Source: Raillietiella orientalis (lineage: Eukaryota). From it: DNA of 64,000 nt. The stretch lies in the NCBI GenBank assembly GCA_036172245.1, contig JAYWIR010000027.1:2108001-2172000 (forward strand), in the 5' to 3' direction. The position numbers and the translations under genes were made by a program. This document shows, piece after piece, positions 18,640-64,000 of this stretch. The notes under the pieces are model-generated. The model searched no databases, was not told the DNA's origin, and saw nothing but the letters and a program-made list of their open reading frames with translations. Positions within the stretch are counted from its first letter, which is position 1, and each line of letters starts with the position of its first letter.

Positions 18640-18850
18640 CTCCGAAGGAGAGTAGAGAAGGGAATCCTCCTTCTCTATTCTCTCCGGAGGACCCCCGGAA
18701 GGGTCCGCTCCATTCTTTCTCCTCTGAAGGGAACCCGGAAAGGATCCCATCCTGGAATTTTTCTTCTCCGGAGGGATCCCCCGAAAGGGATCCGCTCCTG
18801 TTTATTCCTCTGAAGAGAACCTAGAAGGGACTTTTCCGAAATTCAGAAGG
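18640..18850. repeat. degenerate GC-rich minisatellite, ~42-bp unit (~84-bp higher period)
   Basis: ttctctccggaggacccccggaagggtccgctcc...tctgaagggaacccggaa (from ~18678) recurs as ttcttctccggagggatcccccgaaagggatccgctcc...tctgaagagaacctagaa (from ~18761). Confidence 0.6.
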
Positions 18851-30800: not shown

Positions 30801-31449
30801 ATTCATCTTGACCCATTTAATGACTATCCGAAATGCATTCCTTGTTGGAGTAATCCAAGATACTAATGCAAGCCCCATGGATTCCTGATCTACAAGATGA
30901 ATTTATCTCCATAAAACATCGGTATTCCAGGTGTTGCATGGCAATCCCCCTCCCCCCGGCACGCAACCACAGCTAGAAACCAATCGATGCCTGCTTGATG
31001 CTGCTGCACGCATCTTGTGCACTTCCTGTTTCCGTAAACAACTAACAAATATTTTCTTCCGAAAACAGATTTGTGGTAATTGACTGTGCATCATTTGGAT
31101 ATTCTTGCAACTACTCCGACTTGTGCATTAATTTAAAAAAAAAAAACACATATCTGACTGGCGCCTCTCTCCCCCCTTTTCTTGCTTCGGTTCTTCTGAT
31201 ATGCAAAGAATCGGGTCGCATCCACAAATATTGATCTCGCTACTGCTCTCCGTCCTCTGGCTCCTTTTTTAACAAGTAGGCTCTTCCCGTTCTCTTGCGT
31301 TCGCTCGTCTTTCCCAGCTTTCCCTCCCCCAATAATTGATGCGGCCATTTAATATCTCCGTTCCATGTCTTCCCTGATAATCACCGTCGTTCGTGACCTG
31401 ATTGCTAATTGAACTGTGATCTTTCAAAACTGAGTTCAGGAATCCATAA

Positions 31450-33500: not shown

Positions 33501-34130
33501 AAAAGGGTTTGGCGAAGTCGCTTGCCAATGATCCGTCTGCTCTCCTCCCTCTTTCGCTCCTCTCCCCTAAGGCAGCCGCCACCACGCCGTGCATGTTCCC
33601 TGACACACCACGTGGCAGCGCGCTTCCGGCGAAAGCGAACTGCAACAGCGTTGAGAGCGGGAGACGCCCCCTCTTTTGTCACTTCCTTGGCGAGGAAATC
33701 GGGACAGCAAGGGCATGGCCTGAACAGTCCGTGGGGCTCGCCGGGGACTGGAACAATGACCTTCCCTTCCTTCCTGCCATCCAAACTCCTTTACTTTTGT
33801 ACTTGTACTGACACATACTCCCTGCTCCTCGTGACAACTCCATAATCTTCCCCCTGAGCGAACCGCACACAAAGAGTGGGCTCCCACATCCGGTCGGAAG
33901 TTTCCTCCCTACTCCGCATATTTGTTTGCTCTGGCGTGCAGGCGCAAACCGATCTCCCTCTCCCTTAGGAAATGCGCGCAGGCGCGAAGTCACCACGGCA
34001 CAAGGAAAACGTGTGCCCCCACTAGCGACCTATCTTGCACCCTAGTTCGCTCCACAAAAAGGAAATCGCCCCTCTTCCTTTCCTTTTCCGCCCACGTTAA
34101 GGGCGGACTGCTTCCTCTCTCTGCTGCAAA

Positions 34131-34329
34131 AGGAGGGCAGCAGGAGAAAAGGGGCAGGGAGAGGGGGAATCCGGGAGACGAGCGGCTGCAGGTGGGCAGA
34201 CGCTTCGCGGGCCATCGGGCCAATTTCGAAGCGCATTCACGGCGCTTCCATATGGAAAAAGTGACCACCTGCAGACGCTCATCTCGCGGATTCCCCCTCT
34301 CCCTGCCCCTTTTCTCCTGCTGCCCTCCT
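34131..34329. repeat. 68-bp inverted repeat with 63-nt loop (foldback/MITE-like hairpin)
   Basis: 34131-34198 is the reverse complement of 34262-34329 with 4 mismatches. The loop contains smaller stems (cgcttcg/cgaagcg; ttccatatggaa). Confidence 0.9.
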
Positions 34330-37300
34330 GAAGTGACCAACAGGAGAGGGGGTCCGTGAAGCACGAGGCGGCGGGAAAACGCCGGGACTTAAAAGCAGAC
34401 GGAGGAGGCCTCGGGTAGCCGAGTTCAAGGGGTCTCGCGAGAGAGAACCTTCCTTACCGGGGGCACACCCCTAGGCGGGATAGAACTCTCGTTAACTGTG
34501 TGCGAATGTCGCGCGTTGCACGGGGAAAACAAAGCTTCCTCCCTCCCAGTTTCTACAATGATCGCCTACAGATTTATTTTAAGTAAAACTTTCCCGATGT
34601 AAACCCAAGTTTGCACTACGAATGCGTGCAACCCTTGTAGATCACAGGCGATAAAAAACGAATCGCGTTGAAAGAGTCAAAAGTAGGCTGTCACCTTCCC
34701 CTCCGGGAAACGGGAAGCGTGCATGCGACCGAAGGCCTTAGAGAGGGGAGAGGTGAAATTTGCGTGCATTCATGAAATATGTACACGTGCCTGTGGAAAA
34801 CGCACGTTCACGGCGTACGTTCTCATCTCTCTCTCTCTTTTCAATGATAAGCGTTGTACCAACTGGCGGTAAACAAACAGTCCGAAGCAACTCATTACAC
34901 CGATGCATGCGCATCAAGCATCTCACGTGTCTAGCCTTTCACGCTTTCTTCGAGTGGTGCCTTCTTGCGCGGGAGAATCTTCGCAGACTCCGTAACCAGG
35001 GCTACCCGCAGGTTTTTTTTTTTTTTTTTGAGGAGGGGGGGGGGGGCGTCTGCGGATTTTCGAATCCCAAGTTTTTGCAGAACCGTTGCAGGGGAAAGCA
35101 CGGCGTGGCCACTACCAGCACTGCAAGCGCTTCTTTCCGCTTGCGGGTCCGTTTCCTTAAGCAAAGTAAATCGCGAACTAATACTTTGAAAATTTCGGTT
35201 GACACAGCCAATGGCTCTAAATCATCACAAACACAGAAGGGAAAAAACTCTCGCGCTTCGGCTCCGAAAACCGAGAAAACAAGCGATTCTCGAGAGAATC
35301 CACGCTTTTCCAAAGTTCTGTTCAGAAAATAATTCGGTGGATTGAGTCGAGTGGTTCGTATTTAAAAATGCATACTTTAGTGAGAAAAAGTCATCATTCT
35401 GTCCCTACAAATACCTGCGAAAATTTCCCGCATGTTTTTTGTTGACTCGGCAAAGGAAGTCAGGTATGTGGTCCACTAAAACAAAAACATAGGATGATAA
35501 AGTATGACAGTGAACCTTAGGAGCGTGCGCATCTCTTTTCGTTACAGATCTTCTGAAAGATGGAATTGATATGCAAAAGCATGAATTCCTTGAAAGTTTT
35601 CATTGCCAACACGCTACCTTAGAAGAAATTCATTAGATTCACAGTTACAGATTTCACAGCAGTCTTGCAGGGTTGCAGTCGAACACGAAAATTAAAACAA
35701 AAATCTCTGTTGGGGATGGAGTGAAGATGTTTCCTTCTTTAGGCAATGGAAGAGTTGAAACAGTTTTTTCCTTTTAGGTATCTGCAGAACGCAGTTTGTT
35801 TCTTCATCCTGAAACTGCTCAGAAACACATTTGGAATTGGGCTATTGAATAAAGCATTTCTAAAATTCATTCCCAGATATTATCGGTAATTACCCTTTAC
35901 CCATGACCGAACATTTTTGCATTACTACTGGTGCGATTTGCTCGTTTCAAGTGCATTTCTTATCGCAAACGTATTGAATACATCCACTCATCAGAATTTT
36001 GATATTCTTTCCTTCCTCGATTATTTTCCTCTGCATTTGTTTATAAGCGTCGTCGTATTTTTTGACAAAATTTTTTAATAAAAGTGCTTTCAACAAAACA
36101 TGGAAACATTGCTTTTTCCATGACTGCGCTAAATCCGCGTTTCTCTCACATGATAAGTTATGTAGCTGTGTATCTTGATGTCGTGAAGTTATTGTAAAGG
36201 ATTTCGTGATTAATAGAATGAGTCTTCAGTCCTCGAAAATGTTTTCGTAGCAAACATTAATCATCTACACATGCAAACCGTAGATGAAAACGAATTCTTT
36301 TAAAGTATACAAAAGCAATTATTACCTCACATAAGCATCTCAGAAACGAAAGAAATTTCTATTTCTAATGAATATTTGACCAAGAGAGAATTCTCTTGGT
36401 TTATCGTGAAATGGAAACCTTAAGGTTCTGCTGCATTAATGTGAATTTGATATTATTTCCCGTGTCAACAGAAATTCGCATGATATTCAATGTTTAAAAT
36501 TATTTTTTTCATAGCACGAGCACGGGAGAGAGAATTAAATTCATGTTACATGCAATAACGATTATAATGAAAGTTAACAGCCTCTTTTGGATTGAAGATA
36601 AATTCTTTTGGAAGTAGCATCAGATGTCCTCGACTTCCATTTTATCCTTCCACATAAGCGAAATGGTCTGCTTAATTTATATAAAAAAAAAAATTACCGT
36701 TATCGTGGAAAAAACGAAATAGTAATCTACCAAATCGAGCATGGTTCATGGTTTTTGTTAAGAGTTCAAGTAGACTCAGATCGCATGCCGATAACAAGTC
36801 AGAAAAATGAGAACATAAACGATCGGTCGAATTTGCATCATAGGTCAAATGTAATACATAGCCCCAACTTTTCGAACGACTACGTTATGTACGTTACTTT
36901 TTAAAAGTCCTGACAGCTCACAAGTTGTAGTGAAACCCCTGAGCTTTCACTGCCTGACATGATTTATTACAGGAAATTCACAAAATAGCTATCCGCGAAG
37001 TGTACTACTAGCTACAGGCATTAATTTTTCGAGGTGAAGTTGGCTACTCTTTTTCGTTTCAAGGCGGAGGTAGCTGCGAACTCGGGAAAAAAAGACTGCC
37101 CTTAGAATAAAAGTTTATAAAACTGCCGACTTGTAATTTGTTTTTTCAATCAGCCTTGCAGATGCCAGAGAAATCTTGGAACGACGCGTACTTCGTGGAG
37201 GGAACAGAATATGGCGCGTTTCCCTTTCAGCTAGGAGTCGCGGAACAAATCAGCGAAACAGATGGGGGGCGCACTGCAAGGATTCTCAAGCAGGAGGAGC

Positions 37301-42999: not shown

Positions 43000-43451
43000 A
43001 TATTTGTTACATTCACCACGGTGCTGTAGAAAGCTCCTTTACAACACCGAGACGTGACAAAAGAATTGATTACTCACCTATGCCTAACAAATCGATACAA
43101 GCTGAGCATCCGATTTTGAAATTTGCAAACCGTACAGAAAACAAACGATCGTACAATACGTACTCACCGCGTATGTTTACCTATACTTCCATGCCACCAC
43201 CATTCGCTTTCCTGTATACTGATACTGCTCAGCTAATTTAGATAATCGGAGGCCATATTGATTTGTACTTGCAATGCATCGCGTTTTTCTAACTTGGTTT
43301 CTATTGGTCCATTTTGTCTGCGACTTTAACGTATTGGTAGATTGTATGGAAGAGAACCAATTGTATTTTTTGTGTGTAAATTGCGGAAGCATGCATATAC
43401 ATGGAGTGAGTTTGCAGTGGTCACGTTAAGAGCGGTGCTAGAGTACATAAA
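43000..43451. promoter_or_regulatory. probable bidirectional promoter region between RSBN1 and SET
   Basis: CpG-retaining patch between CpG-poor gene bodies. It has minus-strand GTGAGT donors at ~43077 and ~43167 and a plus-strand GTGAGT at ~43406 just before the SET ATG. Confidence 0.4.
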
Positions 43452-45868
43452 ATGGCAAGCGAAGGAGTTACGCCAAAGAAATTGAGGAAAGTTGAAAATA
43501 TGAGTTCCACAATAACTGATAATGAAGAGGGAAGAGAATATGATCCGGAGACACAGAAAGCTTTAGAAGAAATAGATCAATGCCAGAATGAAATTGATGC
43601 ATTAAATGAAAAGGCCAGTGAGGAAATACTGAAAGTTGAACAAAAATATAATAAATTGAGGAAACCATATTTTGAAAAAAGAAACGATATAATTAAAAGG
43701 ATCCCTAACTTTTGGGTTACAGCTGTATCCTTTAAGCCACTGTGATGTATGCCAGATTGATATTGATTTGATAATGAAAGCAAATCGGAAATTTGTGGCA
43801 ATGATGTTACGTGCCTTTATGTTTTTCTGACCGCAAGAATCTGGTGCTTTTAGGTTGCAGAGGATTCGTTCTTGTAAGGTTTTTGTGCACATTCATTATA
43901 GGTGTAAGTTTCTGTATTTTTGGATTTTTTGGCTTAAAGTGTCTCATCCCATTTCTGTTTGATTACTTTTAGAAAATGGTATTGCTGCAAATACAGATAT
44001 TTAACTTATGTGTAAGAATATTGCGGTCTTCTAACAATGCCAAAATAAGTGAATGGCAAAATTGATAAAAAGATGCAGTATGTGTGTGGAAAGTGTCTGC
44101 TTTTTTGTGTGATTATTTTCAAAGGATTTAAAATAACTACTCATTTGTAGCATTAGAAACTTCAGAACAGCCATATAGTGTGTAGGGACAAAAATTTTGG
44201 AAAACTTTGCCAAGTTCTATGTTAACATGCAATAATATCAGTATTGGTATATTTAAGATAGAATCATTTAAAAGTTTTATGAATGAGAACCATGGGAACA
44301 ACATAAAGGAGTTGTTTATTGCAAGTTTTGGAAACGTTAATAAACTTCGAGTCAGATTGTACTTTCTTGATTTGTGATACAAGTAGTTTTTTGAAGTGTG
44401 CTTGAAGTCTTAACAGTACTTTCAGTGATTTTCAATTATTCTGGTTTATGAAATTTGATGCAGAATGAAATTGCATTCCCTTTATCCATCTTTTTAAATG
44501 TAGTGGAATTCACTATTTGATGTGAATGTGTTTGCTTTCAGGCACATAAAAAGTCCTAAAATTTTAGCATGTTTAATTAGATAAATCTTTAATTAAATTC
44601 AACCAGAAATGTATGGTATGTAATGCTTTTTGTTCTTTCTTGTAAAAATTTGGGTTACAATGTTATATATATTTGCTGATGCTATAAATACATTCATAGC
44701 TTGTGTTTGCAGCATTCTGTTCATAAAAGTTCTTAACTTCACAGTTTGTTAATCATCCTCAGATATCAGCGATTTTAGATGAAACCGAAGAAGACTGTTT
44801 GCATTATTTGAGCAAACTTGAAGTAGAAGAATTTGAAGATATCAAATCTGGATACAGGTAGAATTTGATGTTCTGTTTAGCTTCCTTTTTTTTTTTTATG
44901 CAACCTTAGTACTCATAAACATTTTTTTAATCCTATAAATATAACTGATGTAATATTTACCTACATGAGTATTGACAAGTTAATCTTAGTATTGACCATA
45001 TTAATGGGTTTGCTTATTTATATCAGTGAAAAGCACACACTTTTGTACAGTTTAAGTGGCAATACCAAATTCCTTCTCCAATTATTCCCCAAAGATAGGT
45101 AATGCAGTGCCTTTTTTTTTTTTTGTTGCATTTTCTGTTTTTAAATTCCCTTACTTCATTGGTGATGATGTTTTTTGGATATATCAAACAAAATTAATCA
45201 CAGGTCCATATCGTTTTTGTGTAGTGCATTGAAACCTTCTGGAGTATTCTAATTCTGTGCATTTCAGAATTAAATTTTACTTTGATGAAAATCCTTATTT
45301 TGAAAATGAATGTCTGACCAAAGAATTTCATTTAGGATCTTCAGGTGAGTATATATTTTCATCAGTTTCTTTTATTTGCTTTTAGGTGATCCATCTTCAC
45401 AGAGCACCACAGTGAAATGGAAAGAAGGAAAGGAACTGGATAAGCTGCACAATGAAGAGAAACAGGGATCATCTAAAAAGCACAGGAAGCGAGTGTTTTG
45501 TTCACGCACATTTTTTTCTTGGTTCAAAGACCATGGGGATCCTGGAGCTGATGACATTGCAGAGGTTTGTTACTTCATAATACATGTATAGGATTATTTC
45601 ATGTGGCAACAGGTGATCAAAGATGATATGTGGCCCAATCCTCTGCAGTATTTTTTGGTTCCTGACATTGAAGTAGAAAATGGAGTTGAGGAAGAGGGTA
45701 CTGATGAGGGGGAAGAAGTTGATGACAGTGTGGTTGTTGTTGAAGAGGAAGATGATGAAGATGAAGATGAGGAGGAAGGCTTAGAAGATGAAGATGAAGG
45801 TATTTTATCAAGACCAGTAAAAGAAATCTAAATAGAATCTTTCAGGTGAGGGAGAAGAAGAATTGTAA
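43452..45868 (+). CDS. SET: protein SET / TAF-Ibeta (NAP-family histone chaperone, PP2A inhibitor)
   Basis: Exons ~43452-43724, 44745-44857, 45268-45343, 45386-45564, 45613-45799 and 45846-45868. Sequence: [33 protein letters not shown]...[16 protein letters not shown]...[24 protein letters not shown]...[17 protein letters not shown], then an acidic tail. Confidence 0.95.
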
Positions 45869-47655: not shown

Positions 47656-47949
47656 AGAAAAGTGAAGTACCACAATCAAGAAAAAAACTTAAACTAACAG
47701 GAAAAAACACACAAACAAACTACAACAAATTGACAGCCCCAAAAAACATTGGAAACAAAAAAAATACAACCGGGGAAGCAATAACAAACCACAATATACA
47801 ACCAATCATAAATTTTCACACCGACAATCAACACAATAAATATTTGAAAGAAAAAAATTCAACACAACCACACATCACCACAGACAGCAGACAGCGTTAA
47901 CAACAAAAAACTACCATCCAAAAAAACAAAAAAGTGGAAAACCCATGGC

Positions 47950-50050
47950 CTTCAGTGCCAAAATTCCAAACCACGGGCCCATCTCCACCCTTTCAGCATC
48001 ACCGGTGCCCTTCTCTCCTTTCTTCTCTCTCCCTCCACCACCCCACCCCTCCCCGGGCAGCTGAGTGCGTCGCAACCCGACGGCTGGCACGCCCCGAAGC
48101 GCGCCGGCGTACTCGAGAGACGGCCAGGACCCCCCTCCGTCGTTGGGAAGACCTGCCCGCGGAACGAAACGGTGGTGCACGCCGCTTCCGACTCGCCTCC
48201 GGCGGGCGGCCACCTCGGGAGTGAGCGCTCGCGAAGCGGGGAGATGTGGGAGGAAGGCAGGGGGAGAAGGCGGCAAACGTAACGCAGCAGGGCGAGGCGC
48301 GGGAGAGAAGGAAAGGAAGAGGAAGAGGAGGACTCCGAGCGACGACACGAGGAGGCAGCGAGCAGGGGCCGGCGCGACTTCGCGGAGGAGGCCGCAACCG
48401 CGTCCCTCGCGCAGCGGACACCGATGCGACGGCCGCCAAGGGCAGAGCGAGCGGAAGCCTCCTACTGCGGCGGCGCCGCTGCTGCCGCTGCTGCTGCCAC
48501 CGCCGCCGCCCACCCGCGACTTGCTCGAAGCACGCGGAGCGAAGGACAACAGCTTCCCATCCCGCGAGACATGCCAGCAGCACCACTACCACCATACCAG
48601 CTGCTGCTGCTGCTGCTCTCTGCCTGCCTCTTTCACGACGACGTCCCGGGGCGGGCGCGCCCACTGCCGAGGGACGCGGGAGGTCCGAGTCGACCTTCCG
48701 CCGCCTTCACGCGCTGGCCCGCAAACGCACGGCGGAGCTGCGCCAATGCTTCCGAGAGCGGCAGCCTTCGGACGACGACGGGCCGAACCCCCCTCCCCCC
48801 CCCCCGCCGCGCACCGGCCAGGCTGGGGGGGGCGCGTGTTTCCTTACCCCCCACCCCCCCTCTCGACTCGGACCCTCCCTCCCGGCAACGTCTGCCGCCG
48901 CCGCCCGGTCGGGCACTTCCTCCGGAAAGCTCTTATCCCCGTGCGCCGTCTCTTCCTCGCGCGCACGCGCACGTGCACGTGCGCTCTCTCCCCCGCTCGC
49001 CCGCAGCGGAGCGAAGAATGCCTTGCGTGCTCTATCCGGGGCCGATGTCGAGGAAGGCGCGCGCGCTTCCGACCGCTACCGGGAAGTGCGACCGGGCTGC
49101 CGGGAGCCGAGCAGCAGCAGCGGTCGCTGCCGCCCCGGAGGGCGTACGGCTCGCGCGCTCTGCGCCCTCGATCTTTGCTGGCGGATTCGTTCGACCGGGG
49201 AAGAAGAGCGGGCGCGTTGCCGCCAAAGACGCCGCACTCTCCGTTCGCCGGGGGGGCGACCCTTTCTGCAAGGACGCGATCTCCTCCGAAGGATGCGCAG
49301 GCCGACAGGACAGCCGCCGCCGCCGCCGCCGCCGGGCTGCAGCGTAGGGAGCAGCCAGCGCGGGCGGGCGCGCAGAAAATACCGGAAACGCTTACAGCCT
49401 AATACGCGAGTAATACTTTGAAGTCGGGTGCTGCAGGGGCTGCCGCCGCGGCCCCTGCCGAAATCCTGCTGCGTCGGTTGGCGCGAAGCGTCGGCGGCGG
49501 CAGGTGCTCGCGTGGCCGCCGTGCCGCTGCCCCATCTGCCAGACCGACGGTGGGCCGGGGGGAAGCGAGCGAGCGAGCGAGTTGCGCAGGCGGAGGAAGG
49601 GACTCGCTCGCCCAGACCGCAAGCGTTCGCACGTGCCGCAGCCGCCGCCGCCGCCGCCGCCGCCGCGTCCGCCGGCCTGCCATGGCAGTGAAATCCCGTG
49701 AGGAAAGGAGGAAAGGAGGAGGAGATTCCCACAGGATATGGTACGCAGTTTGGAAGGTGTGCGATTCGTGTGTAGCGCCCGCGGTTCGGCCGAAAGAGGT
49801 TTGGCGCGATTTCTTTTTTCCTTTTCCCCCTCCCCCCCCTTTCCGGCTCGCACACCTCGCCGGGTGTTTGTTTGCCGAGACCACCACTCGAGAGCCGTGG
49901 CTGAGGCCGGGCAGGTGGTCGGATCTCCCCCCCCCCCCTTCTCTCTCTTGCGTGGAACGATGCACGTGGAAAATCCCGCCCGTGCCGCTTCGAATCGGTG
50001 AGCGTGTGTCGCTGAAAACCGCACAAACAAACAAACAAAAATGTGTTTGC
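47950..50050. promoter_or_regulatory. extremely GC/CpG-rich island with (GCC)n/(CTG)n tracts covering the PIGA 5' end
   Basis: Abrupt switch from A-rich DNA at ~47930. (GCC)~8 at 49641-49666 just before the PIGA ATG, (GCC)~6 at ~49314, (CTG)5 at ~48601. Short AT-richer core at ~49375-49425. Confidence 0.6.
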
Positions 50051-51894
50051 GTAAACGAAAATCCTTACGCGATGCTGAGCAACAGTAGTATGGTTTCAGA
50101 TTTTTTTTATCCAAAAACAGGCGGCGTGGAATCGCACATATATCAGTTATCGCAATGTTTGATGCAGAGGGGCCACAAGGTGATCGTGGTCACGCATGCG
50201 TATGGGGACAGAATCGGCATCCGGTACATGACCAGTGGATTAAAGGTTAGAAATGCTTCCAAGTACAGCATCGGCACGAACCATGCCTTGTACCCCCTCC
50301 CCCCCACCCCCTTGCCCCAGCCATCCATCCCATTTTCTTTTCTTTTTTCTCTGTAAGGTCTACTACCTGCCGCTGCCTGTGATGTATGAAGAATGCATTT
50401 TCCCCACAGCCGTTTGCAGTCTCCCTCTGCTGAGGTTGGATTCGGATTCCAAAAGATGATAAGCTGCCCTTTGAACTATGTTTAGAAATATCTTCTTGAG
50501 AGAGAGAATCACCGTGGTGCACGGGCACTCTGCATTCTCGATTCTGGCACATGAAGCTATGGTTCATGCCAGGGCAATGCGTCTAAAGAGCGTCCTGACA
50601 GATCATTCTCTTGCCGGATTTGCTGATTCATCTGCCATCATCACCAACAATCTGCTGCAAATGCTGCTGGCCGATTGCAATCATTGCATCTGTGTGTCTT
50701 ATGTAGGGTAAGGTGCCTGCGGTGGGTGCAGGTTGTGTGGTTTCCTGAGAGAGCTGTCCATCCTCAGGAAGGCCAATACAGTTTTACGTGCTCATGTGCA
50801 GAGTGATCGCGTGTCTGTCATACCAAATGCAGTGGACCCCATGGTTTTCACCCCCGATCCATCCCAAAGAGAACCTGGAAAAAGTAATGCGATGCCTCGT
50901 TGATTCTTTGGATTGTCTGCAATGGTGTCTGTTCAGCAACTATCGTTGTTGTCAGCCGCCTTGTGTATCGCAAAGGGATTGATCTGTTGGTTGCGGTGAT
51001 TCCTGTTCTTTGTTCCAAGTATCCTGATGTCCAGTTCATCATAGGAGGTGATGGTCCCAAGAGGGTTCTCTTAGAGCAAGTTAGAGAGGTATTTGAACTG
51101 CAAGAAAGGATTCAGATGTTGGGGACATTAAGTGCATCGGAAGTGAGAAACGTTTTGGTGAAAGGAGATATTTTCCTTAACACTTCTTTGACGGAAGCCT
51201 TTTGCATTGCTCTTTTGGAGGCAGCTGCCTGTGGGTCAGTATGGAAGCACTAAATTCCTGTTGTTGTTACTTGCATGCAAAGCTAGCTTGCAGGTGGTAA
51301 GCACACGGGTTGGAGGCGTCCCTGAAGTGCTTCCCCCAGAAATGATCTGGTTAGCCGATCCCAGTGTCTCAGGTACCATGTGTGATGATTATGTGAGCAA
51401 CTGCTGTAAGATGAAGCAGGCGTGCTGGAAGCTTTGGACCGTGCCATAACAGCAAAGCAAAGGGGAAGCATTTTGTCTCCAGAGGAAGCACACAGACGCA
51501 TTCAGCACATGTACAGCTGGCAGGATGTGGCCCAGCGTACGGAAGTTGTGTATGATCTTGTCAGCAAAGATGCACCTCTGTGCTTGACAGACCAAATACA
51601 GCACTGCTTCAAACTGGGAACGGCAAACAACAAAGTGTTCGTGTTGATCTTGGTCCTGATTCATGCCGTGTTGTACCTACTTGACCGTTTATTACCCCCT
51701 GAGGTGAGCAGTATACCGAGCATGTTTTTTTTCCTTCCTTCTTTCTTTTTCATTTTTCCTTTTCCTTTTCTTTCTCCTCGTTGCAAAGTTAACAAAGCAC
51801 TCAGAATGTGGATATCTGCCAAGATTTCCCATCGGTCCTGCACAGCAGCGGAGAGCCTGTTGGAAAACGAGCCAAAACAAAGATAGCAAAATAA
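49682..51894 (+). CDS. PIGA: phosphatidylinositol N-acetylglucosaminyltransferase subunit A
   Basis: Exon 1 (49682-49740, [19 protein letters not shown]) joins at 50089 to give [28 protein letters not shown]. Further motifs: [81 protein letters not shown]-terminal TM segment follows, and the last exon is NVDICQDFP...IAK*. Confidence 0.95.
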
Positions 51895-51982
51895 ATTCGG
51901 TTTTTATTGCAAACTTGGGTTGGTCAGTCACTCTTTTGTTGCTGTGGCAGTGAGCAAGGATCAGAAAGGATAGCTTCGGGGA

Positions 51983-54900
51983 TTAAACGTGGAGAAAACT
52001 CTCGATGCTTGTGCTGGGACTTTTTTTGTAAGAATAATACCGATGCGCCGATGCACCAGCATTAGACAAACAGCAGCAATCTTTGCTTCGAGTTCGTGGT
52101 GTCCTTGAGAGAGGTTCGGAGGCAACTGAGACCCTTTCCGATTCATCCGAGTAGTCTACGCTACCTCCGTGGGACACGAAACCCGAACTCTGGCTAGAGG
52201 AACGCGATAAAGGGAACAGCCCGGTCTCACACATGTTGGAGACCGGCGTGGTCCAGCACCTGTCTTGCATGGGAGCCGGAAATGCAGTCAGCTTTAACTG
52301 GGGAGGGCGCAGTACAGATATCTGCCTGTCCCAGTCGGGGCACGAATTCACACTGAGAACTGACTTGGGATAACTAGAGTGCAAAGTACGCGGAGATCCG
52401 ATTTTCAGGATATCGAATGCCAGGTTCAAGTCTTTGAGTTCGTCTCCGGAATAGCACTTGTGGTCATGCAAGGATTCGGTAGCGCTGCTTGCATCTGTTG
52501 CGGAGCAGGAAGATGAGCTCGAACTGTGTCTGGGAAAAAAGGCAATCTTTTTCTCTGCTTTTGCAGGCGTTTTCGTACCTTGACAAATCCAGCACGACTT
52601 CCACCTGTCGGTTACCGCGTGCGGTCCTGCAAAGTCCTAGGCATGCTATGCTGCTGCTTAGGCACAGAATGGAAATAATGGCTTCGTGCAAATGCATGTT
52701 TTTGTGCGGCAGGTATATGACGTACGAATGCAACAAAAGGCTGCCTACCCACAGAAACACCGTTATGGCATCAGGCAAAACAGCCTTCTCTTTTCCCATT
52801 AGCAAAATTATGGACGAGTGCAGCACGGTGCAAAAAAGCACCAGGTGAACGGTTTGCTTTTCCAGAATTGGAAGCATCAGGAGGAATTTCTGATTCAAGT
52901 AGAAATCGACCTGCATGTAGGTAAGCACGGGAAAGTCCAAGTAGTGCATATGCAGGAGGCAAATGATGAAAGCTACGAAAACCAACACTTGGCGCAATAT
53001 GTTCAGAGTAAGCAACGTTCCCAGCGATTGCTTTTCCGTAAGAGTCACCTATCGAGGAGAAACAAAAGTTACTCGATCCTCTCTCTCTCCGGGAACTTCC
53101 ATCCCGCTTACTGTGGCGCGTTGCTCAGGAGCGCTGCCCACCGAAATCGAATCAACGTCATTTACCCACGCGTGATGCTTATGCTGCAACAGGTGGTCCT
53201 GCTTCTTCAGGTGATCAGCGACCATCTTGTCGCAGTTTCTGCACAGCTTGTACACATGTTCCAATTTCTGTCTGGGTGAAGAATATCAGCAAAATATCAT
53301 CAATTCGTGTTTGGAGTACTAAAAAAAGACTAAGAGCATGCGAATCTTCCCGAAAGAATGAAAGATCGGCTGATCCAAACAAATAGCAAGCAGATCAAAC
53401 GAGGAGCAAGCTGCGCACCCTCGCTCGCAAGCAGGGGAAAGCCCCGTTGAATCCCGACGAAAGCCTCAGAGCGGAACGAGCCCAGTGCGACCGCAAAAGG
53501 ATGGTGCAAGGAACGGCAACTCCTTGCACGGGCACGCAACGTGCCGCTCTCACTTCTTTCCTACGGTCCCCCTTGGCGTCGTTCACCGTGTGCACGGAAG
53601 CCGGTACTTTCTAGTGTCTTGTCCCGTTTCACCCCGTTGCACACGTGAAGAGAGAGAGAGAAATGATCTCCGCTGCCGGACCGCACCAGAGAAGAACCAC
53701 GAGCGGTAACACCATTTGGGCACGCCCAGGAGTACTCTCCTGTTAGATCCGCAGGAGAATGTGGGCGCAACACGGGAAGAGCCGTTTGACTCGCCACCAT
53801 GGCACAGTAAGAGGGGACGCAGCTTCGCAAATGGACCGACGTCACAGAGAAGTTCGTGGGTGAAGATTGTCAGAACGGAAGCAAGCAGAAAACGCGCAGG
53901 GATGAACGTACGCGGCTGCGAAATCGCAAAGAGAAATTGGCGAGGAAAGCGATACTGCTCGTTGGTGTCCATTCGGTTGGACTCGAGGACGGATGAGGGT
54001 GAAGACGCATTGCTCGCGAAGCCTTCTGAACGGTGGGGCGAACAAACCTCAAATCGCCTTGCGTTGCATCACTGAAGAACTTAACGTAACAGTTTTACGT
54101 AAAACAGTCGCGCTCGGATAGAGAGGTTTGTAAATTCGGAGAACGAGGGGCTCCTCGTTCTGAGGAATAGGACCTCGACGATCACGTTTCCACAGAAGCG
54201 CAGAGCAAGAGGAAGTGCAAGATCAGAAATGGGAACGTCTCGCATTTGCGTTCTGCTCATTCTGCTCTTATTCCCCCTTTCCCTCTCCTTTCATGCTAGG
54301 AAAACTTACCTAAACTGGTGAACTTCCGTATCAAAATTGTCCTCGCATATTGGCACAAAATCGGCGAGCTGCTTGATCTTCAGATACTGATTGTAACTAC
54401 AACTCTTGCAAAAATTTTCCTTTTCATGATCATAAGGACGTTTCGTCGATGTCATCCAGGTGACGCCATTGCACGTTTCAGTGTACTGTTCTGGAATAGG
54501 TTGATTGTAGTCTCCATCCTAGCAGGGAATCATCAGGTTAAAAACGTGAAGGATGACATCAGCAAGGCACAGAAAACATTGTGCTTGTTTTTAGTTTTTC
54601 GAAACGACGACAAGCAGTTGCTTTCCTTTCTGATTCCGAGAGGCTGGGTAAGATTTACGCATTCAACAAGTAAGTTGGGCTTCCCGTAAGCATGACGAGG
54701 AATGCGGCTAGCCGGTCGAGCCACTGCCATGCTCTTGCGTGTTTTGGAAGGATGAGCCAAATAGAAGCAAAGGATGGGCCGCAAACACGCGAAAGTAGCG
54801 TCTTGCGATTCCTGAGAGGCTGTGCTCACGCAATGTTCCGACACAGGATCACGGCTCGCTCATCCTCACCGAGTATTCGTCATGACGCAAGAGATGTTCA

Positions 54901-57900
54901 TCATCGGTATACCACGGAACATGAAGATCTAGGCTCACCTTCGAGGTGCCGAACAAGCGAGTTGCACGGCCTTCTCCGGTGAAAGGTTTAGGACGTACCG
55001 ATCGCAACCAAACAACTCCCTGAACGAAACTCTTAGATTTGGGAAGAGTCGATATCGCTTTCCTTCTAAAGGCATCCGGGAAACCGAACCGAAGAGAGCA
55101 GCGTGCGAGTATAGATGCGTGCGTGTGGGTGTTGTGATCCGAGTCCGCTTCGCAGGAGGCAGCACGAAAAAACTTCCTCTTCGCAGGAAACAGGCATAGG
55201 CAGGTGTCGAAAATCCAGACCGTGCGACTGTTGCCCATTAACGCTGATATTCCGTAAATACCAGAGCACTGACAACAACAGCGAAAAGTCTTTCAGAAAC
55301 GTCCTGAAGAGAACGAGACACGGTGAGGACGGGATCTGCTGGAATTGCTGCCAATCAAACTTCAGGAGCACGATCTGATTGCTTCGGTGCTAAAGAATCT
55401 GAGATTCCAGCAAATTCTTGGTACCTTGGTACATTACAAATAATATCTCCGCCGAAAAATACTCAAAGGGCGAATTTCACACTTTCAATGCCTTTTCTTC
55501 AACAAACGAGTTCCGAATCAGCTGCCAAATGTGACGGCTACACGGATGGGCTTCAGGAAATGAGTGGCCAAGGAGACGAGATCGATAGTGTGCTATGAGC
55601 CAGGATCTAATCAAGTAAGACATCGGACGAGGATAGAAAATCGTAGCTCTGGGTGCATACGGAAAAACGCGCCTAACCTACTTTGAGGACCAGCACCCGA
55701 AATCGCTGCAAAGCGACTGCCTTGCCACCGGTTCGTACTCGAAAGCAGGATTTCCAATTCACATGATTTTGCGTGGCGCAACTCGGGTCTTTCGAGCAGA
55801 TTCTCTCTCTTCCCATCCTTGAGTAATCTATCAGCATTCTTTTCAAACGAGCAAGCATGTTTCCCACCTTGGACAATGTGGAACTGGGGCTGAATTCTAT
55901 CGATTGCAGTAACATTTATTGCACGTACATGGAGTTACGGAGGTGCAGAAAACGCAGTCCTCCCGCAACAAACATTTGCAATCTTTCGCAGGGGTGACTA
56001 CCGCAGTTCAAGCAAACGTATAGTCACTTCTTCTAACGTTCATGCCCAACAGGTTATACTTCCCGTGAACCATTACAAAGCATGTTCCTGAAAACCAATT
56101 TCCCACTACGCTTGCACCCGGCTAGTCTGGCTACGGTCTTCCGATATATCACCAAGCCAGCTCTTGAGACACTGCAACCTAATTCTGTTTATAAGTCATC
56201 GATCCAATGATCTCTTGCCTCGCATACATTCGTGCTGTTTATGAGGTCTCTGCGAGTTCCTTCAATGCCGAAATTACGTAGTGGACGTTTGCTTCATCCT
56301 CTAACAAGACGCGTTCAATATGTGTGAGCTCTCCGTTGTTTGCTGCATGAAATTCGAAACGATCTTCTGCTCCAGCAGGCATTTTGGAGATCCGAATCGG
56401 TGAACCGTTTCCGTGAACAAATCTCCCAAGATTCCTCCCCTTCTTCAGCGACGGCATGTGTTCAAGCGTAGCTAAAAACTTTTCGTTTCCACAGCATTCG
56501 GACTTTCTTTATTCCTTGGAACCGTGCTGGAGGATTTTTTCTAATTCAACGTTTCTTACTCCTGTTGACATTCCGATTTCCACGTTTAGTTTTCCATTGA
56601 TGCTTTCGTAATTTATATCCTTCAGCAGACATTTTTTTTTCTTTGGACGCAAATGAATACTGGAGCCAGCATTTGTCTTCCGGAAGTACTTTCTTTTCTC
56701 ATGTCTTCACGTAATCTTACGGAAAGCAATCTGTCACACATCGGCTATACTGCTTATCATTTACGAAATAACAGCCAATGAAAGAGAAATGAAGGCAGAA
56801 TGAGCAATGAAAGAGAATGGGGAGAAGTTGCACCTTACTCGTGATGTTTCCACTCTGAATGGGGCAAAGGAAACTCGAGGAGCTACTCCCTCCGTGTTAT
56901 TGAATTTATGATGTAGGAGATTCTATGAAGGAAAACTTTGCTTTTCAGCTACAATTCATGTTTCTCAAGAATCTTGGGTAAGTAACCAAGTTACGTTGAG
57001 TAGCTGGCTGATTTGTTATATGCGGACTGAGTATTAGGGTAATCCCAAGGAAGAAACGTGAGTAGCCATGGAACATGAAGGAAACGATGCATGTTTACTG
57101 TTTTCCAACATTGACAACAAGTGTTTTTTGCTTACTAAAAATTGCAAAGAAGTTTAGCATGGGCAGCCGGCAAGAGCAAGGCAAGGCACATAAGACGAAA
57201 CAACAAGACAGAAGATAGCGCCACTATTTCCAGAAGAAAAACAAGAGGATTAAGCCCTCGTTTGAAAGTCACAGATTGCAAAGAGAAAAACAAAATGAAG
57301 TTGTTGAATAGAGCTGCACACGTAACTGCAGAACGATTTGAACGATAGTGGTTATCAAGAAAAAAATGGAACACGAGAGTGTTTGAGAAGAATCTTTTCA
57401 TCGCGTGCACGAACGTAACCTGGTGTGGAATCATTTGTACAGGGATCAATTTATTTGGCACTTTCCCCTGTGCTAGGTAAACTTGAGAGTTGATAAATTA
57501 TTTCGCATGATTTGTTGTATAGTAACTGATTAATTATACAATAAACTTGAGAAATACACTTTATTAAATATAATAATGCATTGTAGGTGAGTTACCCTGT
57601 TTCGCGTAGAACGAAATCTGTTTGAAACTTGCAATTGACATGCTCCTGGAAATCGTGATCTATGACTTAATATGTTAGTTGATGAAAAGAGCTATGATGG
57701 AATAAGTGACAATAAAGAAACAAAAAACAGCAAGAGATGCCTGGAGAACGATATCGACAAAGCTGTTTTAATGTCAGAGAAGAATGGGATGCAGACTTCG
57801 AATCTTCAACTCACTTTCTTTGGCATACCGCTTCGATGTAGTCATGAATTTACATGACTACCCATTTAATCAGCTTGATGAAACTGTTTATTGGTACACA

Positions 57901-60387
57901 GTTGTGGAATAGGTGAATTAAATGTGCATTAAATGTATTAGGTGAAAGTAACCCTATACCGTAATGTAACAAAAGATTCTGCAAACATATCCAAATGAGA
58001 AACACGGGCAAAATTAAAGAGAGACGAATGAAACCATTCAACACTTTTGATTCCGCTTTCCGTTTTAATACATATAAATACAATTATTGATATTCGCATA
58101 TTTCTAAAATTAGCTGATAGATACATTTTATTATTCACATGCTCAGTATACATAAGTGAAAAAGGGCAAATTCGTATATAAAATTCATAAAACCACCAAG
58201 TTAAAAACATTATTTGAAGCACTTAAAAAAACAAACCTTGGAGAATCCATTATATTGATTGCAATCTGGACAATGGAAACAATTTTTGTTTTTGTACAAA
58301 ACTGTGCAGTTCTGATTGCAGAACCAACAATTCACTTTGCACTTCCAATTTTTCCTGAAATTACAAAAAATTAAAAGTAGGAATACTAACTTAATGTTAC
58401 AGTTATACATTCAATAATCATGTTGAAAATACTATTTTTGCCAGAAAACTTATTGATGCATTTTGAGGGAACAAACAATTGCATTCCCCAAACACCACAA
58501 TAGTGTCTTCATAAATCGAATATACACCTAGGGTTATAACATATACTTCACAGAGATACCTTACATTTTATTAAATTATGATAATTTCAATAAGAATAAC
58601 ATGTTTGTAATAATATCCATGAACCACATTGGTTCCCATGAAAGCAAAAAATCAAAACCTTGAAAGTTAAATGCTCATTATTAACAATACAACTGTTTGG
58701 TTTGTCAAAGAACTTACGAATTTTTATAAGCTTAAATGTATTGTTAAAATGCATTTGCAAAGTGGTCAATGTATTCACAAAAACAATTTGAACTAATACA
58801 TACATGCAGCATATTCCAGTCAAATCAAGAATACATCAAGATGAAAAATAGAAAATAAAGGAAGTATTAGCCTGGGAATAAAAGCATATAACAGATTTTC
58901 ATGGGAATTCATCCTGATAAATCAGATTTTGAGAACTACTTCTGGGAAAACTGATTTTCTTGCAGAAACCCAGCTCACACAACAGAGGATGAAGGTAATG
59001 CAAGCAATAAAAATCTTTTCCAAAATAACTGAATGTTAAATGCTGCTTTGAATGTTAAATGCAAAATTAATAAGAGGCAACTGAAAAAAAAAATCTCTTG
59101 GTTAAAGGACACAAACCCTCATAATCTCTAATAATTTTAGTCTTGAGTCAGACATTATTAATACACCACAAAATATAAGTTGATGAAATTAACAGATGTA
59201 AACAAAGATATTTGTGAGCATTATCAACATTAAAAACATCATTCAAGAAAATCTGATGAAAGATATGAAAAGTTTCCATTACAGCTGCATGGTTCAAACA
59301 TTGGCTGATTTTTAGTCTTTGGAGAATGAAGTGAAAATTGTTTCTACATTAAAGTTGTTTTTTAGCTGAATTTACATGGCATGAAAGACCAGGATTTTTA
59401 AAAACATAAAATGCTATTGTCTCACCCCCCCACACAAAATCACTGCTGTTTTTAATCTTCAAACATTTTAAAGCTTTAACAATCACTCAAATCAAGAATA
59501 AAGAAATGCAAACAGCACACTCATAAAAGAAAAACATCCATGTATTGTGAATAGAAAGAATATAAAATCTATAAAATTAAGACAAAAACAACTTAGGTTT
59601 TTTAAGAATGGAAAACTGTATTCATGCATGTGAAAACACGTAAAAAAGCAAATGATAGTGAAAATCATAAATACTTCTACGTGCCATAAATTTAGTGAAA
59701 ACACTCCATTAAACCCATAAACTTATGGCACAGCATTATGTCAATAGTGCAAAGAATCCTAGGTGAACCCTATTACAGAACCACATCAGTTTATAAAGAT
59801 TGCTGCTGGCTATCTTAAAAGCAAATCATCACCCTCGCTTTTCTTCTTATATTCGTCACCCAAATTATCAGCACACAACTCGAAACATGCGGAACATTTT
59901 ACTAAAAAGAGCAAACATCACTCTTGCAATAACACAAAGAAACAACAAATAAATCCCCTATACATAAAAGCTACTAAATCAGAACAAAATCAGAAATATT
60001 GATACCTAGAGTATGCAATCACACTTCAAACAGTATTATAATATGAACGGCACATACGACTATTACCCCTTCATACATCACTCAAATCAGAGTAAGAATG
60101 AGGCATAGATATCAACTGAATCACAAAAAACTGATAACAACTACTTCGAAAACAATTTCGGTGTATGGAACACATGAAATATGACTATAACCACCTCATA
60201 TATAAAACATGACCCCATAAAATGCTTAGGTCCTTTGTTTCGACGATTTTCTCGTTCAATAATCACAATCGTAGCAAATTGAAATACATTACCTGAAATA
60301 CCTAAGCAACCAGAAGAAACCCAATACGGAAGAAGTAACCAGTAGTCCACCATTTGCCAATATTGAATACATGGAATTATTATACAT
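51983..60387 (-). CDS. TMEM201: TMEM201 / Samp1 / Ima1 family inner nuclear membrane protein
   Basis: Exon 1 60387-60293 (hydrophobic N-terminus ...SVLGFFWLLRYF). Exon 2 58354-58237 (KVNCWFCNQ...CPDCNQYNGFSK). Exon 3 54518-54310 (DGDYNQPIPEQY...CKSCSYNQYLKIKQLADFVP...FDTEV). Exon 4 from 53271 (LEHVYKLCRNC). Then a multi-TM exon ~53048-52520 and a Ser-rich tail to 51983. Phases 2/0/2 all match, giving the four CxxC of the Ima1_N domain. The ATG could be 60387 or 60372. Confidence 0.88.
54062..57644. repeat. left arm of long inverted duplication (probably extends further left)
   Basis: Reverse complement of 60416-64000. Mirrored ORFs in the track sum to 118062 (118060 near the centre). Confidence 0.97.
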
Positions 60388-60415
60388 ACATTTTCTTATT
60401 CTTCAACATTCAAAC

Positions 60416-63400
60416 AGCATGTCAATTGCAAGTTTCAAACAGATTTCGTTCTACGCGAAACAGGGTAACTCACCTACAATGCATTATTATATTTAATAAA
60501 GTGTATTTCTCAAGTTTATTGTATAATTAATCAGTTACTATACAACAAATCATGCGAAATAATTTATCAACTCTCAAGTTTACCTAGCACAGGGGAAAGT
60601 GCCAAATAAATTGATCCCTGTACAAATGATTCCACACCAGGTTACGTTCGTGCACGCGATGAAAAGATTCTTCTCAAACACTCTCGTGTTCCATTTTTTT
60701 CTTGATAACCACTATCGTTCAAATCGTTCTGCAGTTACGTGTGCAGCTCTATTCAACAACTTCATTTTGTTTTTCTCTTTGCAATCTGTGACTTTCAAAC
60801 GAGGGCTTAATCCTCTTGTTTTTCTTCTGGAAATAGTGGCGCTATCTTCTGTCTTGTTGTTTCGTCTTATGTGCCTTGCCTTGCTCTTGCCAAAGCTTAC
60901 ATGCTAAACTTCTTTGCAATTTTTTAGTAAGCAAAAAACACTTGTTGTCAATGTTGGAAAACAGTAAACATGCATCGTTTCCTTCATGTTCCATGGCTAC
61001 TCACGTTTCTTCCTTGGGATTACCCTAATACTCAGTCCGCATATAACAAATCAGCCAGCTACTCAACGTAACTTGGTTACTTACCCAAGATTCTTGAGAA
61101 ACATGAATTGTAGCTGAAAAGCAAAGTTTTCCTTCATAGAATCTCCTACATCATAAATTCAATAACACGGAGGGAGTAGCTCCTCGAGTTTCCTTTGCCC
61201 CATTCAGAGTGGAAACATCACGAGTAAGGTGCAACTTCTCCCCATTCTCTTTCATTGCTCATTCTGCCTTCATTTCTCTTTCATTGGCTGTTATTTCGTA
61301 AATGATAAGCAGTATAGCCGATGTGTGACAGATTGCTTTCCGTAAGATTACGTGAAGACATGAGAAAAGAAAGTACTTCCGGAAGACAAATGCTGGCTCC
61401 AGTATTCATTTGCGTCCAAAGAAAAAAAAATGTCTGCTGAAGGATATAAATTACGAAAGCATCAATGGAAAACTAAACGTGGAAATCGGAATGTCAACAG
61501 GAGTAAGAAACGTTGAATTAGAAAAAATCCTCCAGCACGGTTCCAAGGAATAAAGAAAGTCCGAATGCTGTGGAAACGAAAAGTTTTTAGCTACGCTTGA
61601 ACACATGCCGTCGCTGAAGAAGGGGAGGAATCTTGGGAGATTTGTTCACGGAAACGGTTCACCGATTCGGATCTCCAAAATGCCTGCTGGAGCAGAAGAT
61701 CGTTTCGAATTTCATGCAGCAAACAACGGAGAGCTCACACATATTGAACGCGTCTTGTTAGAGGATGAAGCAAACGTCCACTACGTAATTTCGGCATTGA
61801 AGGAACTCGCAGAGACCTCATAAACAGCACGAATGTATGCGAGGCAAGAGATCATTGGATCGATGACTTATAAACAGAATTAGGTTGCAGTGTCTCAAGA
61901 GCTGGCTTGGTGATATATCGGAAGACCGTAGCCAGACTAGCCGGGTGCAAGCGTAGTGGGAAATTGGTTTTCAGGAACATGCTTTGTAATGGTTCACGGG
62001 AAGTATAACCTGTTGGGCATGAACGTTAGAAGAAGTGACTATACGTTTGCTTGAACTGCGGTAGTCACCCCTGCGAAAGATTGCAAATGTTTGTTGCGGG
62101 AGGACTGCGTTTTCTGCACCTCCGTAACTCCATGTACGTGCAATAAATGTTACTGCAATCGATAGAATTCAGCCCCAGTTCCACATTGTCCAAGGTGGGA
62201 AACATGCTTGCTCGTTTGAAAAGAATGCTGATAGATTACTCAAGGATGGGAAGAGAGAGAATCTGCTCGAAAGACCCGAGTTGCGCCACGCAAAATCATG
62301 TGAATTGGAAATCCTGCTTTCGAGTACGAACCGGTGGCAAGGCAGTCGCTTTGCAGCGATTTCGGGTGCTGGTCCTCAAAGTAGGTTAGGCGCGTTTTTC
62401 CGTATGCACCCAGAGCTACGATTTTCTATCCTCGTCCGATGTCTTACTTGATTAGATCCTGGCTCATAGCACACTATCGATCTCGTCTCCTTGGCCACTC
62501 ATTTCCTGAAGCCCATCCGTGTAGCCGTCACATTTGGCAGCTGATTCGGAACTCGTTTGTTGAAGAAAAGGCATTGAAAGTGTGAAATTCGCCCTTTGAG
62601 TATTTTTCGGCGGAGATATTATTTGTAATGTACCAAGGTACCAAGAATTTGCTGGAATCTCAGATTCTTTAGCACCGAAGCAATCAGATCGTGCTCCTGA
62701 AGTTTGATTGGCAGCAATTCCAGCAGATCCCGTCCTCACCGTGTCTCGTTCTCTTCAGGACGTTTCTGAAAGACTTTTCGCTGTTGTTGTCAGTGCTCTG
62801 GTATTTACGGAATATCAGCGTTAATGGGCAACAGTCGCACGGTCTGGATTTTCGACACCTGCCTATGCCTGTTTCCTGCGAAGAGGAAGTTTTTTCGTGC
62901 TGCCTCCTGCGAAGCGGACTCGGATCACAACACCCACACGCACGCATCTATACTCGCACGCTGCTCTCTTCGGTTCGGTTTCCCGGATGCCTTTAGAAGG
63001 AAAGCGATATCGACTCTTCCCAAATCTAAGAGTTTCGTTCAGGGAGTTGTTTGGTTGCGATCGGTACGTCCTAAACCTTTCACCGGAGAAGGCCGTGCAA
63101 CTCGCTTGTTCGGCACCTCGAAGGTGAGCCTAGATCTTCATGTTCCGTGGTATACCGATGATGAACATCTCTTGCGTCATGACGAATACTCGGTGAGGAT
63201 GAGCGAGCCGTGATCCTGTGTCGGAACATTGCGTGAGCACAGCCTCTCAGGAATCGCAAGACGCTACTTTCGCGTGTTTGCGGCCCATCCTTTGCTTCTA
63301 TTTGGCTCATCCTTCCAAAACACGCAAGAGCATGGCAGTGGCTCGACCGGCTAGCCGCATTCCTCGTCATGCTTACGGGAAGCCCAACTTACTTGTTGAA

Positions 63401-64000
63401 TGCGTAAATCTTACCCAGCCTCTCGGAATCAGAAAGGAAAGCAACTGCTTGTCGTCGTTTCGAAAAACTAAAAACAAGCACAATGTTTTCTGTGCCTTGC
63501 TGATGTCATCCTTCACGTTTTTAACCTGATGATTCCCTGCTAGGATGGAGACTACAATCAACCTATTCCAGAACAGTACACTGAAACGTGCAATGGCGTC
63601 ACCTGGATGACATCGACGAAACGTCCTTATGATCATGAAAAGGAAAATTTTTGCAAGAGTTGTAGTTACAATCAGTATCTGAAGATCAAGCAGCTCGCCG
63701 ATTTTGTGCCAATATGCGAGGACAATTTTGATACGGAAGTTCACCAGTTTAGGTAAGTTTTCCTAGCATGAAAGGAGAGGGAAAGGGGGAATAAGAGCAG
63801 AATGAGCAGAACGCAAATGCGAGACGTTCCCATTTCTGATCTTGCACTTCCTCTTGCTCTGCGCTTCTGTGGAAACGTGATCGTCGAGGTCCTATTCCTC
63901 AGAACGAGGAGCCCCTCGTTCTCCGAATTTACAAACCTCTCTATCCGAGCGCGACTGTTTTACGTAAAACTGTTACGTTAAGTTCTTCAGTGATGCAACG
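60416..64000. repeat. right arm of long inverted duplication (truncated by window end)
   Basis: Reverse complement of 54062-57644. The only differences I found are a 7-vs-8-nt patch (57162-57168 vs ~60892-60899) and a 1-nt homopolymer indel. Confidence 0.97.
63544..63752 (+). pseudogene. TMEM201: duplicated TMEM201 exon 3 (partial gene copy lacking exons 1-2 in this orientation)
   Basis: ctag|GATGGAGACTAC...CAGTTTAG|gtaagt is identical to 54518-54310, with intact acceptor and donor. Confidence 0.8.

Follow-up and report, generated by a model that had tools for sequence, protein, structure and literature searches.

Near-identical inverted arms around a unique spacer are a substrate for non-allelic homologous recombination, and in human the arms measure about 11 kb at FLNA-EMD and are larger in the sex-chromosome palindromes. 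At FLNA-EMD (Xq28) and in the X and Y palindromes, whole genes lie in the spacer or in the arms and both orientations are functional. A comparable outline is also on record for sequences that are not biological. Inverted chimeras of multiple displacement amplification (MDA) are reported to have a chimeric distance that is usually <10 kb, with a distribution displayed over 0-5000 nt and a peak at 250-300 nt (PMC9984789), and palindromic reads are reported to promote misassembly (PMC13265396). In the first assembly of Adineta vaga, palindromic genic sequence in an invertebrate draft was interpreted as biology; according to the account of the newer assembly, no earlier palindromes were retrieved there (PMC8494291).

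Here, we propose that an inverted repeat at the TMEM201 gene, lying at one end of a 64-kb window (the whole stretch of DNA that was analysed), belongs with the second group. The right arm of this repeat is most likely absent from this genomic place and would be a fold-back artefact of sequencing or assembly, a reading to which we give a probability of roughly 0.57, and we judge such an artefact more likely than a real invertible gene. If real, the locus would share with FLNA-EMD and with the X and Y palindromes the near-identical inverted arms and the unique, gene-bearing spacer (PMC3961182; PMC8327919; bioRxiv 10.1101/2020.04.20.051185). It differs from the FLNA-EMD type in that the arm boundary cuts TMEM201 intron 2 and sits 28 nt from the start codon. 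A literature search for TMEM201 with an inverted repeat found no paper.

The initial annotation had claimed near-identical inverted copies around a unique spacer of 2771 bp, and this was borne out exactly by global alignment of the left arm with the reverse complement of the right, which sets the inner arm ends at 57644 and 60416 (Table 1). Arm identity is ~99.8% over about 3.58 kb, far beyond chance. A repeat search recovered the inverted copies as two pairs, one of 3080 nt at 100% identity (54062-57141/60921-64000) and one of 483 nt at 99% (57169-57651/60409-60891), and found no other direct or inverted repeat of at least 150 nt in the 64-kb window. The window holds 0 N, and there is no gap between the arm copies. 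With regard to extent, the right arm runs up to the last base of the window, and the left limit of 54062 is simply the mirror of that end at 64000; the repeat is at least 3.58 kb long and may be longer. Any short inverted homology at the junction would have merged into the arms under every model. Two long, highly identical inverted repeats around a unique spacer are thus present, which is the sequence organisation by which invertible segments of the FLNA-EMD type are recognised.

Table 1. Position and content of the inverted repeat and of the TMEM201 exons in the 64-kb window
Feature	Position	Strand	Size or composition	Remarks
Left arm	54062..57644		3583 nt	TMEM201 exon 3, most of intron 2, part of intron 3
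Spacer	57645..60415		2771 nt, 31% GC, CpG o/e 0.45	Unique; TMEM201 coding exons 1 and 2, intron 1 and the first 592 nt of intron 2
Right arm	60416..64000		3585 nt, cut by window end	Reverse complement of left arm; reality questioned
Right junction (60415/60416) and 28 nt to TMEM201 start codon	60388..60416	-		In-frame stop between junction and ATG
Arm differences, left-arm side	57133..57188		A-run and 7-nt patch	From alignment
Arm differences, right-arm side	60872..60925		A-run and 8-nt patch	From alignment
TMEM201 coding exon 1	60293..60387	-	95 nt	Short N-terminus and hydrophobic helix; donor GTAATG
TMEM201 exon 2	58237..58354	-	118 nt	First two CxxC pairs of the Ima1_N domain
TMEM201 exon 3, left arm	54310..54518	-	209 nt
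Exon 3 mirror copy, right arm	63544..63752	+		Identical, including AG and GT flanks
Putative TMEM201 exon 4	53166..53271	-		Outside the visible repeat; end hand-counted from sequence

The assignment of the gene to TMEM201 relies on profile matches and on its relatives. Matches to Pfam PF09779 (Ima1_N) were found in three of the six submitted ORFs: the exon 3 ORF and its mirror copy cover Ima1_N positions 34-102 with 34.8 bits each, above the cut-off of 28.9, and the exon 2 ORF covers positions 1-33 with 28.1 bits, just under that cut-off. No significant Pfam family was matched by the ORFs of exon 1, exon 4 and the 3′ part. A full HMMER scan returned 156 proteins at E <=0.001, the top match cluster being "transmembrane protein 201" of Lingula anatina (3/3 members so named), and the best database representatives show 51-54% identity over exon 3. 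In the gene model this exon begins at residue 72, against residues 66 and 68 in the two best relatives, such that the N-terminal length agrees. As in other members of the TMEM201 / Samp1 / Ima1 family, the predicted protein carries CxxC pairs downstream of a hydrophobic N-terminal helix, and the PF09779 match, the distance of the domain from the N-terminus and the name of the relative all place it in this family. Word-index protein searches with the TMEM201 3′ ORF and with exon 3 gave no match at E <=0.001, which suggests that the source species and its close kin are absent from those collections. An exact search of metagenome contigs, a collection not expected to contain this animal, with the 46 nt on the spacer side of the right junction gave 0 matches.

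The gene is read from the minus strand; the spacer contains its coding exons 1-2 and the left arm its exon 3, bounded by AG acceptors and GT donors, and the spacer exons are in phase with the arm exon 3. Profile matches and splice-site sequence thus agree with the earlier placement of exons 1-2 in the spacer and of an exon 3 with intact splice sites in both arms. The same holds for the mirror position of exon 4, previously expected at ~64790: an exon 4 start at 53271 puts the mirror copy near 64791, beyond the window. The left arm is at the location expected from the TMEM201 exon order.

Between the arms, the alignment has only 7 differing columns and no substitutions over about 3.57 kb. One difference is a 1-nt indel in an A-run near 57137/60925, where the left-arm run is one base shorter. 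The other is a replaced patch (57161-57168 against 60892-60900; 7 nt on the left, 8 nt on the right) that abuts a (GGCAA)n pentanucleotide microsatellite at 57169-57188. In copies that otherwise carry no substitutions, the A-run indel fits a consensus error. The patch may reflect an error of consensus calling, allelic variation or true divergence between paralogous copies, and since it lies 476 nt from the junction it is usable as a copy-specific marker.

In light of this arrangement, how might the right arm have entered the contig? One option is an inverted chimeric molecule or read, produced by strand-displacement amplification or by other template switching; another is an assembly graph that doubled back at a short inverted repeat. 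In either case the contig would follow TMEM201 from intron 2 across exons 2 and 1, and immediately upstream of the start codon it would turn around to read intron 2 and exon 3 again from the other strand. This stretch would then lack what truly lies upstream of TMEM201, and exon 3 would exist in one copy.

Several lines of evidence favour an artefact of this type. First, inverted chimeras have been published with just this A-B-rc(A) layout and a kb-scale spacer, and the distance skipped here (the 2771-nt spacer) falls below the roughly 10 kb under which such molecules usually stay (PMC9984789). More broadly, the locus shares with MDA inverted chimeras and fold-back misassemblies, as these are described, a forward segment, a kb-scale skip of <10 kb, the reverse complement and near-identical arms (PMC9984789; PMC13265396; PMC6218980). 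Second, there are zero substitutions, and the arms differ only at an A-run and at a microsatellite edge, the kind of sequence at which two consensus calls from a single read set are prone to differ. Third, the right junction is only 28 nt upstream of the TMEM201 start codon, and hence, as assembled, the promoter and 5′ UTR would be antisense intron 2, an arrangement that selection should disfavour if it were real and that is costless to an artefact. Fourth, the exon order 1, 2, 3, 4 on the minus strand needs the left junction only, the right junction being dispensable. Finally, there are precedents of assembled palindromes that later vanished. The A-B-rc(A) layout, the close match of the arms and the place of the junction can all be read off the contig, and from them we infer that the junction is artificial. 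Inverted chimera or misassembly had been raised as a caveat in the initial annotation; given the distance of 28 nt from junction to ATG and the arms without substitutions, we judge it to be the likelier explanation.

Some features fit this artefact less well. The 7/8-nt patch is a replacement and not simple slippage, and could be a real paralogous or allelic difference, whereas copies derived from a single chimeric molecule should be identical. In comparison with MDA inverted chimeras as reported (PMC9984789), the 2771-nt spacer is far above the mode of 250-300 nt, in the tail of the distance distribution, and the DNA here may not have been amplified. There is no N gap between the copies, unlike the false duplications described in PMC9516828, for which such gaps were a hallmark. 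The repeat is also the sole long one in 64 kb, and nothing else suggests a chimera-ridden assembly.

The alternative that survives best, and which we regard as possible though not as the preferred reading, is that the inverted duplication is real and very recent: 3.58 kb or more of TMEM201, comprising intron 2, exon 3 and perhaps further sequence, would have been copied and inserted immediately 5′ of the start codon. Such a copy would have arisen through fold-back priming or through template switching during replication, and it would represent either a young structural variant of the sequenced individual or arms kept identical by gene conversion. The contiguous sequence without a gap is consistent with such a duplication, and the patch and A-run differences could fit two physically separate or gene-converted arms; homopolymers and microsatellite edges, as the fastest-mutating sites, would be where a young duplicate diverges earliest. 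Segments flanked by inverted repeats that flip recurrently are, moreover, documented in human (PMC3961182; PMC8327919). However, a junction 28 nt upstream of the ATG would separate a conserved nuclear-envelope gene from its native upstream sequence, and the absence of substitutions across about 3.57 kb would need an extremely recent origin or continual conversion.

A less probable reading, and itself a sub-type of artefact, is that two haplotypes of one locus were joined head to head (an inverted heterotype false duplication), with the patch and the A-run as heterozygous variants. Heterotype false duplications are described as the major class in vertebrate assemblies (PMC9516828), the Adineta vaga palindromes have been attributed to erroneous scaffolding of phased haplotypes (PMC8494291), and a complex variant of 7/8 nt resembles a true allele more than it does a consensus error. 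The present locus differs from the Adineta vaga case, as reported, in being gap-free and in having arms without SNP-level divergence. The lack of a gap between the copies speaks against haplotype joining, and the lack of any single-base difference over about 3.57 kb would require very low heterozygosity. To join the spacer to a reversed haplotype would, in addition, still need a chimeric read or a graph error. We consider this reading unlikely.

What would follow for the gene if the repeat were real? Recombination between the arms would then be expected, as the initial annotation had reasoned, to invert the spacer and to join exons 1-2 to the right-arm exon 3. With only 28 nt separating the arm from the start codon, the right arm itself or the sequence past it would need to supply the transcription start. 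Antisense intron 2, and possibly antisense exon 3 as well, would then precede the sense copies in the primary transcript, and this RNA could fold back into a stem as long as 3.6 kb that encloses exons 1-2. That TMEM201 exons 1-2 do sit on a flippable cassette, with the locus being a newborn hairpin-RNA locus or a self-silencing or invertible allele, strikes us as improbable.

Least credible by far are arms that represent the long terminal inverted repeats of a mobile element with captured host sequence, a transposon having the general shape of long inverted arms around a spacer in its favour and being rejected on the grounds that the spacer holds the genuine first two TMEM201 coding exons, in phase with the arm exon 3, that none of nine tested arm ORFs (>=89 aa) matches Pfam and no transposase was found, that no Rfam family occurs in 40000-64000, and that there is no further copy within the window. 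Two technical explanations were also discarded. Missed-adapter or template-complement read-through predicts A-B-rc(B)-rc(A) without a unique spacer, and the spacer here is unique and non-palindromic. A GC-rich island that breaks the assembly at the TMEM201 5′ end is unsupported, as the PIGA island lies at 48-50 kb and there is none at the first coding exon of the SET-like gene (43.4 kb).

If the repeat is a fold-back artefact, as we favour, part of TMEM201 would be duplicated in the record but not in the genome: a second exon 3 is present, perhaps with more past the end of the window, and the sequence that truly lies upstream of the gene would be absent. Gene counts and promoter analyses could be misled as a result. 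A real repeat would instead be an inverted duplication of very young age, which severs a conserved gene from its promoter and creates an invertible 5′ cassette. It would join the inverted-repeat-mediated rearrangements already known and would not establish a new type of system, but would offer a useful natural case for the origin and tolerance of such duplications.

Here, we propose, on indirect grounds, that the right arm (60416-64000) of the inverted repeat is a fold-back artefact of some kind, with a probability of about 0.57 that includes the case of two haplotypes of one locus. The near-identical inverted copies described in the initial annotation were recovered both by a repeat search of the window, which paired 54062-57141 with 60921-64000 (3080 nt, 100% complementary) and 57169-57651 with 60409-60891 (483 nt, 99%), and by global alignment of the left arm against the reverse complement of the right, in which the arms end on the spacer side at 57644 and 60416, past which similarity is lost. 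The arms (3583 nt left, 3585 nt right) enclose a spacer of 2771 nt and differ in just 7 alignment columns: a 1-nt length change in an A-run near 57137/60925, and a patch beside a (GGCAA)n microsatellite at which 57161-57168 (7 nt) is set against 8 unrelated nt at 60892-60900. Elsewhere there are no substitutions over ~3.57 kb. Because the right arm reaches the window end, position 54062 merely mirrors 64000, and the repeat could extend further. The sequence contains no N, and no second direct or inverted repeat of at least 150 nt occurs anywhere in the 64-kb window.

The initial annotation had placed TMEM201 exons 1-2 in the spacer and exon 3, with intact splice sites, in each arm, and the coordinates bear this out. 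Joined by coordinates, exons 1-3 are in frame and encode a hydrophobic helix at the N-terminus and, after it, CxxC pairs; the gene runs on leftward, with exon 4 starting at 53271, beyond the visible repeat. The coding part is an ordinary TMEM201/Ima1 family member. The Pfam family Ima1_N (PF09779; cut-off 28.9 bits) was matched by 3 of the 6 submitted ORFs, mirror exon 3 included, with the exon 2 ORF covering profile positions 1-33 (28.1 bits, slightly below the cut-off) and the exon 3 ORF positions 34-102 (34.8 bits); ORFs around exons 1, 4 and 5 gave no significant Pfam match. Exon 3 as query in a full HMMER scan returned 156 proteins at E <=0.001 (top identity 54%), the best relative's cluster being named "transmembrane protein 201" (Lingula anatina, a brachiopod). 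The matching stretch starts at residue 66 or 68 in the two best relatives and at residue 72 in our model, and the N-terminal layout is common to five relatives and the model. Besides exon 3 the arms carry nothing recognisable: none of the nine arm ORFs of at least 89 aa matched a Pfam family, and no Rfam family was matched within 40000-64000.

Coordinates of TMEM201 exons and neighbouring genes in the window
Feature	Position	Strand	Length	Remarks
TMEM201 exon 1	60387-60293	minus	95 nt	donor GTAATG
TMEM201 exon 2	58354-58237	minus	118 nt	acceptor CAG, donor GTTTGT
TMEM201 exon 3	54518-54310	minus	209 nt	acceptor TAG, donor GTAAGT
Exon 3 mirror	63544-63752	plus		right arm; exact, with splice flanks
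PIGA-like glycosyltransferase gene	50100-51900	plus		compact; Glycos_transf_1, E 4.5e-20 (50888-51253 ORF)
SET/NAP-family histone chaperone, first coding exon	43410-43745	plus		human SET in PDB, E 1e-24

The two junctions stand in different relations to the gene. The left (57644/57645) lies within intron 2, 592 nt 3' of exon 2, and is the only one that the exon order of TMEM201 requires. The right (60415/60416) precedes the first in-frame ATG by 28 nt, a stretch that contains an in-frame stop, and the assembled sequence 5' of those 28 nt is an antisense copy of intron 2 throughout. Hence the promoter and most of any 5'UTR of this conserved nuclear-envelope gene would have to sit in the antisense intron copy, or the native upstream region would be displaced by at least 3.6 kb; a junction so placed would be harmful if real and is costless to an artefact, which counts towards the latter. 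About 55 nt inside the arm there is a consensus-like splice donor, AG/GTGAGT (57587-57594, plus; 60466-60473, minus), whose right-arm copy is oriented like TMEM201; it would matter only for a genuine right arm that is transcribed as a 5' leader.

In support of an artefact, an arm, a kb-scale spacer and a reverse-complement arm make up the shape of inverted chimeras described in the literature, where the chimeric distance is mostly <10 kb, in a distribution plotted over 0-5000 nt with a peak at 250-300 nt (PMC9984789). Two further papers report that palindromic reads create artificial inverted repeats and favour misassembly (PMC13265396), and that palindromes in the first Adineta vaga assembly, absent from a later chromosome-level one, were judged assembly artefacts (PMC8494291). 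On this reading the repeat would be grouped with such chimeras and assembled palindromes. In addition, both arm differences fall at the A-run or directly by the microsatellite, the likeliest places for discordance when one read set yields two consensus sequences.

A real inverted duplication, very recent or gene-converted, is a lesser though serious possibility. The 2771-nt spacer far exceeds the modal chimeric distance, and the rest of the window shows nothing chimera-like. The patch exchanges one sequence for another, unlike a slippage product; it could mark a genuine difference between physical copies or between alleles. That the arms are two haplotypes of one locus seems to us unlikely. 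The copies are joined without a gap, whereas false duplications in vertebrate assemblies were characteristically accompanied by gaps (PMC9516828). The unique spacer excludes a missed hairpin adapter or template-complement read-through, either of which predicts A-B-rc(B)-rc(A). The spacer side of the right junction had no exact match among metagenome contigs, a collection not expected to include this animal.

Were the duplication real, it would probably have arisen by fold-back priming or by template switching during replication, copying intron 2 and exon 3 (with any sequence past the window) in reverse just 5' of the start codon. With arms of at least 3.58 kb, ~99.8% identical and 2.8 kb apart, homologous recombination would then invert the spacer, a mechanism known from human inversions that inverted repeats mediate (PMC3961182, PMC8327919, bioRxiv 10.1101/2020.04.20.051185). 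As the initial annotation supposed, this would connect exons 1-2 to the right-arm exon 3; whether the flipped gene stayed intact would depend on exons 4 onward being mirrored too, beyond the window. Transcripts initiated in or past the right arm could, in addition, form a fold-back with intron 2. Such a locus would be a further case of a known class, the invertible segment flanked by inverted repeats, its one unusual trait being an arm boundary that cuts a gene by its start codon. No paper in the library searched combined TMEM201 with "inverted repeat" in its full text.

Base composition shifts abruptly within TMEM201, from CpG o/e 1.02 and 44.5% GC in the left arm (54062-57644; intron 2, exon 3) to 0.45 and 31% in the spacer (57645-60415; exons 1-2), a mosaic of CpG depletion which suggests that germline methylation differs across the left junction. 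Two more GC-rich blocks (15000-21000 and 31000-35000; 52-62% GC, CpG o/e 0.88-0.95) lie in AT-rich surroundings. At 47900-50050, directly 5' of the first coding exon of the PIGA-like gene, a 2-kb island of 68-72% GC (CpG o/e ~1.1) contrasts with surroundings of 30-37% GC; translated, it gives long low-complexity Ala/Arg/Gly/Pro runs in every frame. The SET/NAP-family exon further left scored 27.8 bits against Pfam NAP, slightly below the cut-off. TMEM201 and the PIGA-like gene lie tail to tail, the TMEM201 3' end (51983-53271, minus) being separated from its neighbour by hardly any intergenic sequence or none; a mirror that continues past the window would duplicate PIGA as well.
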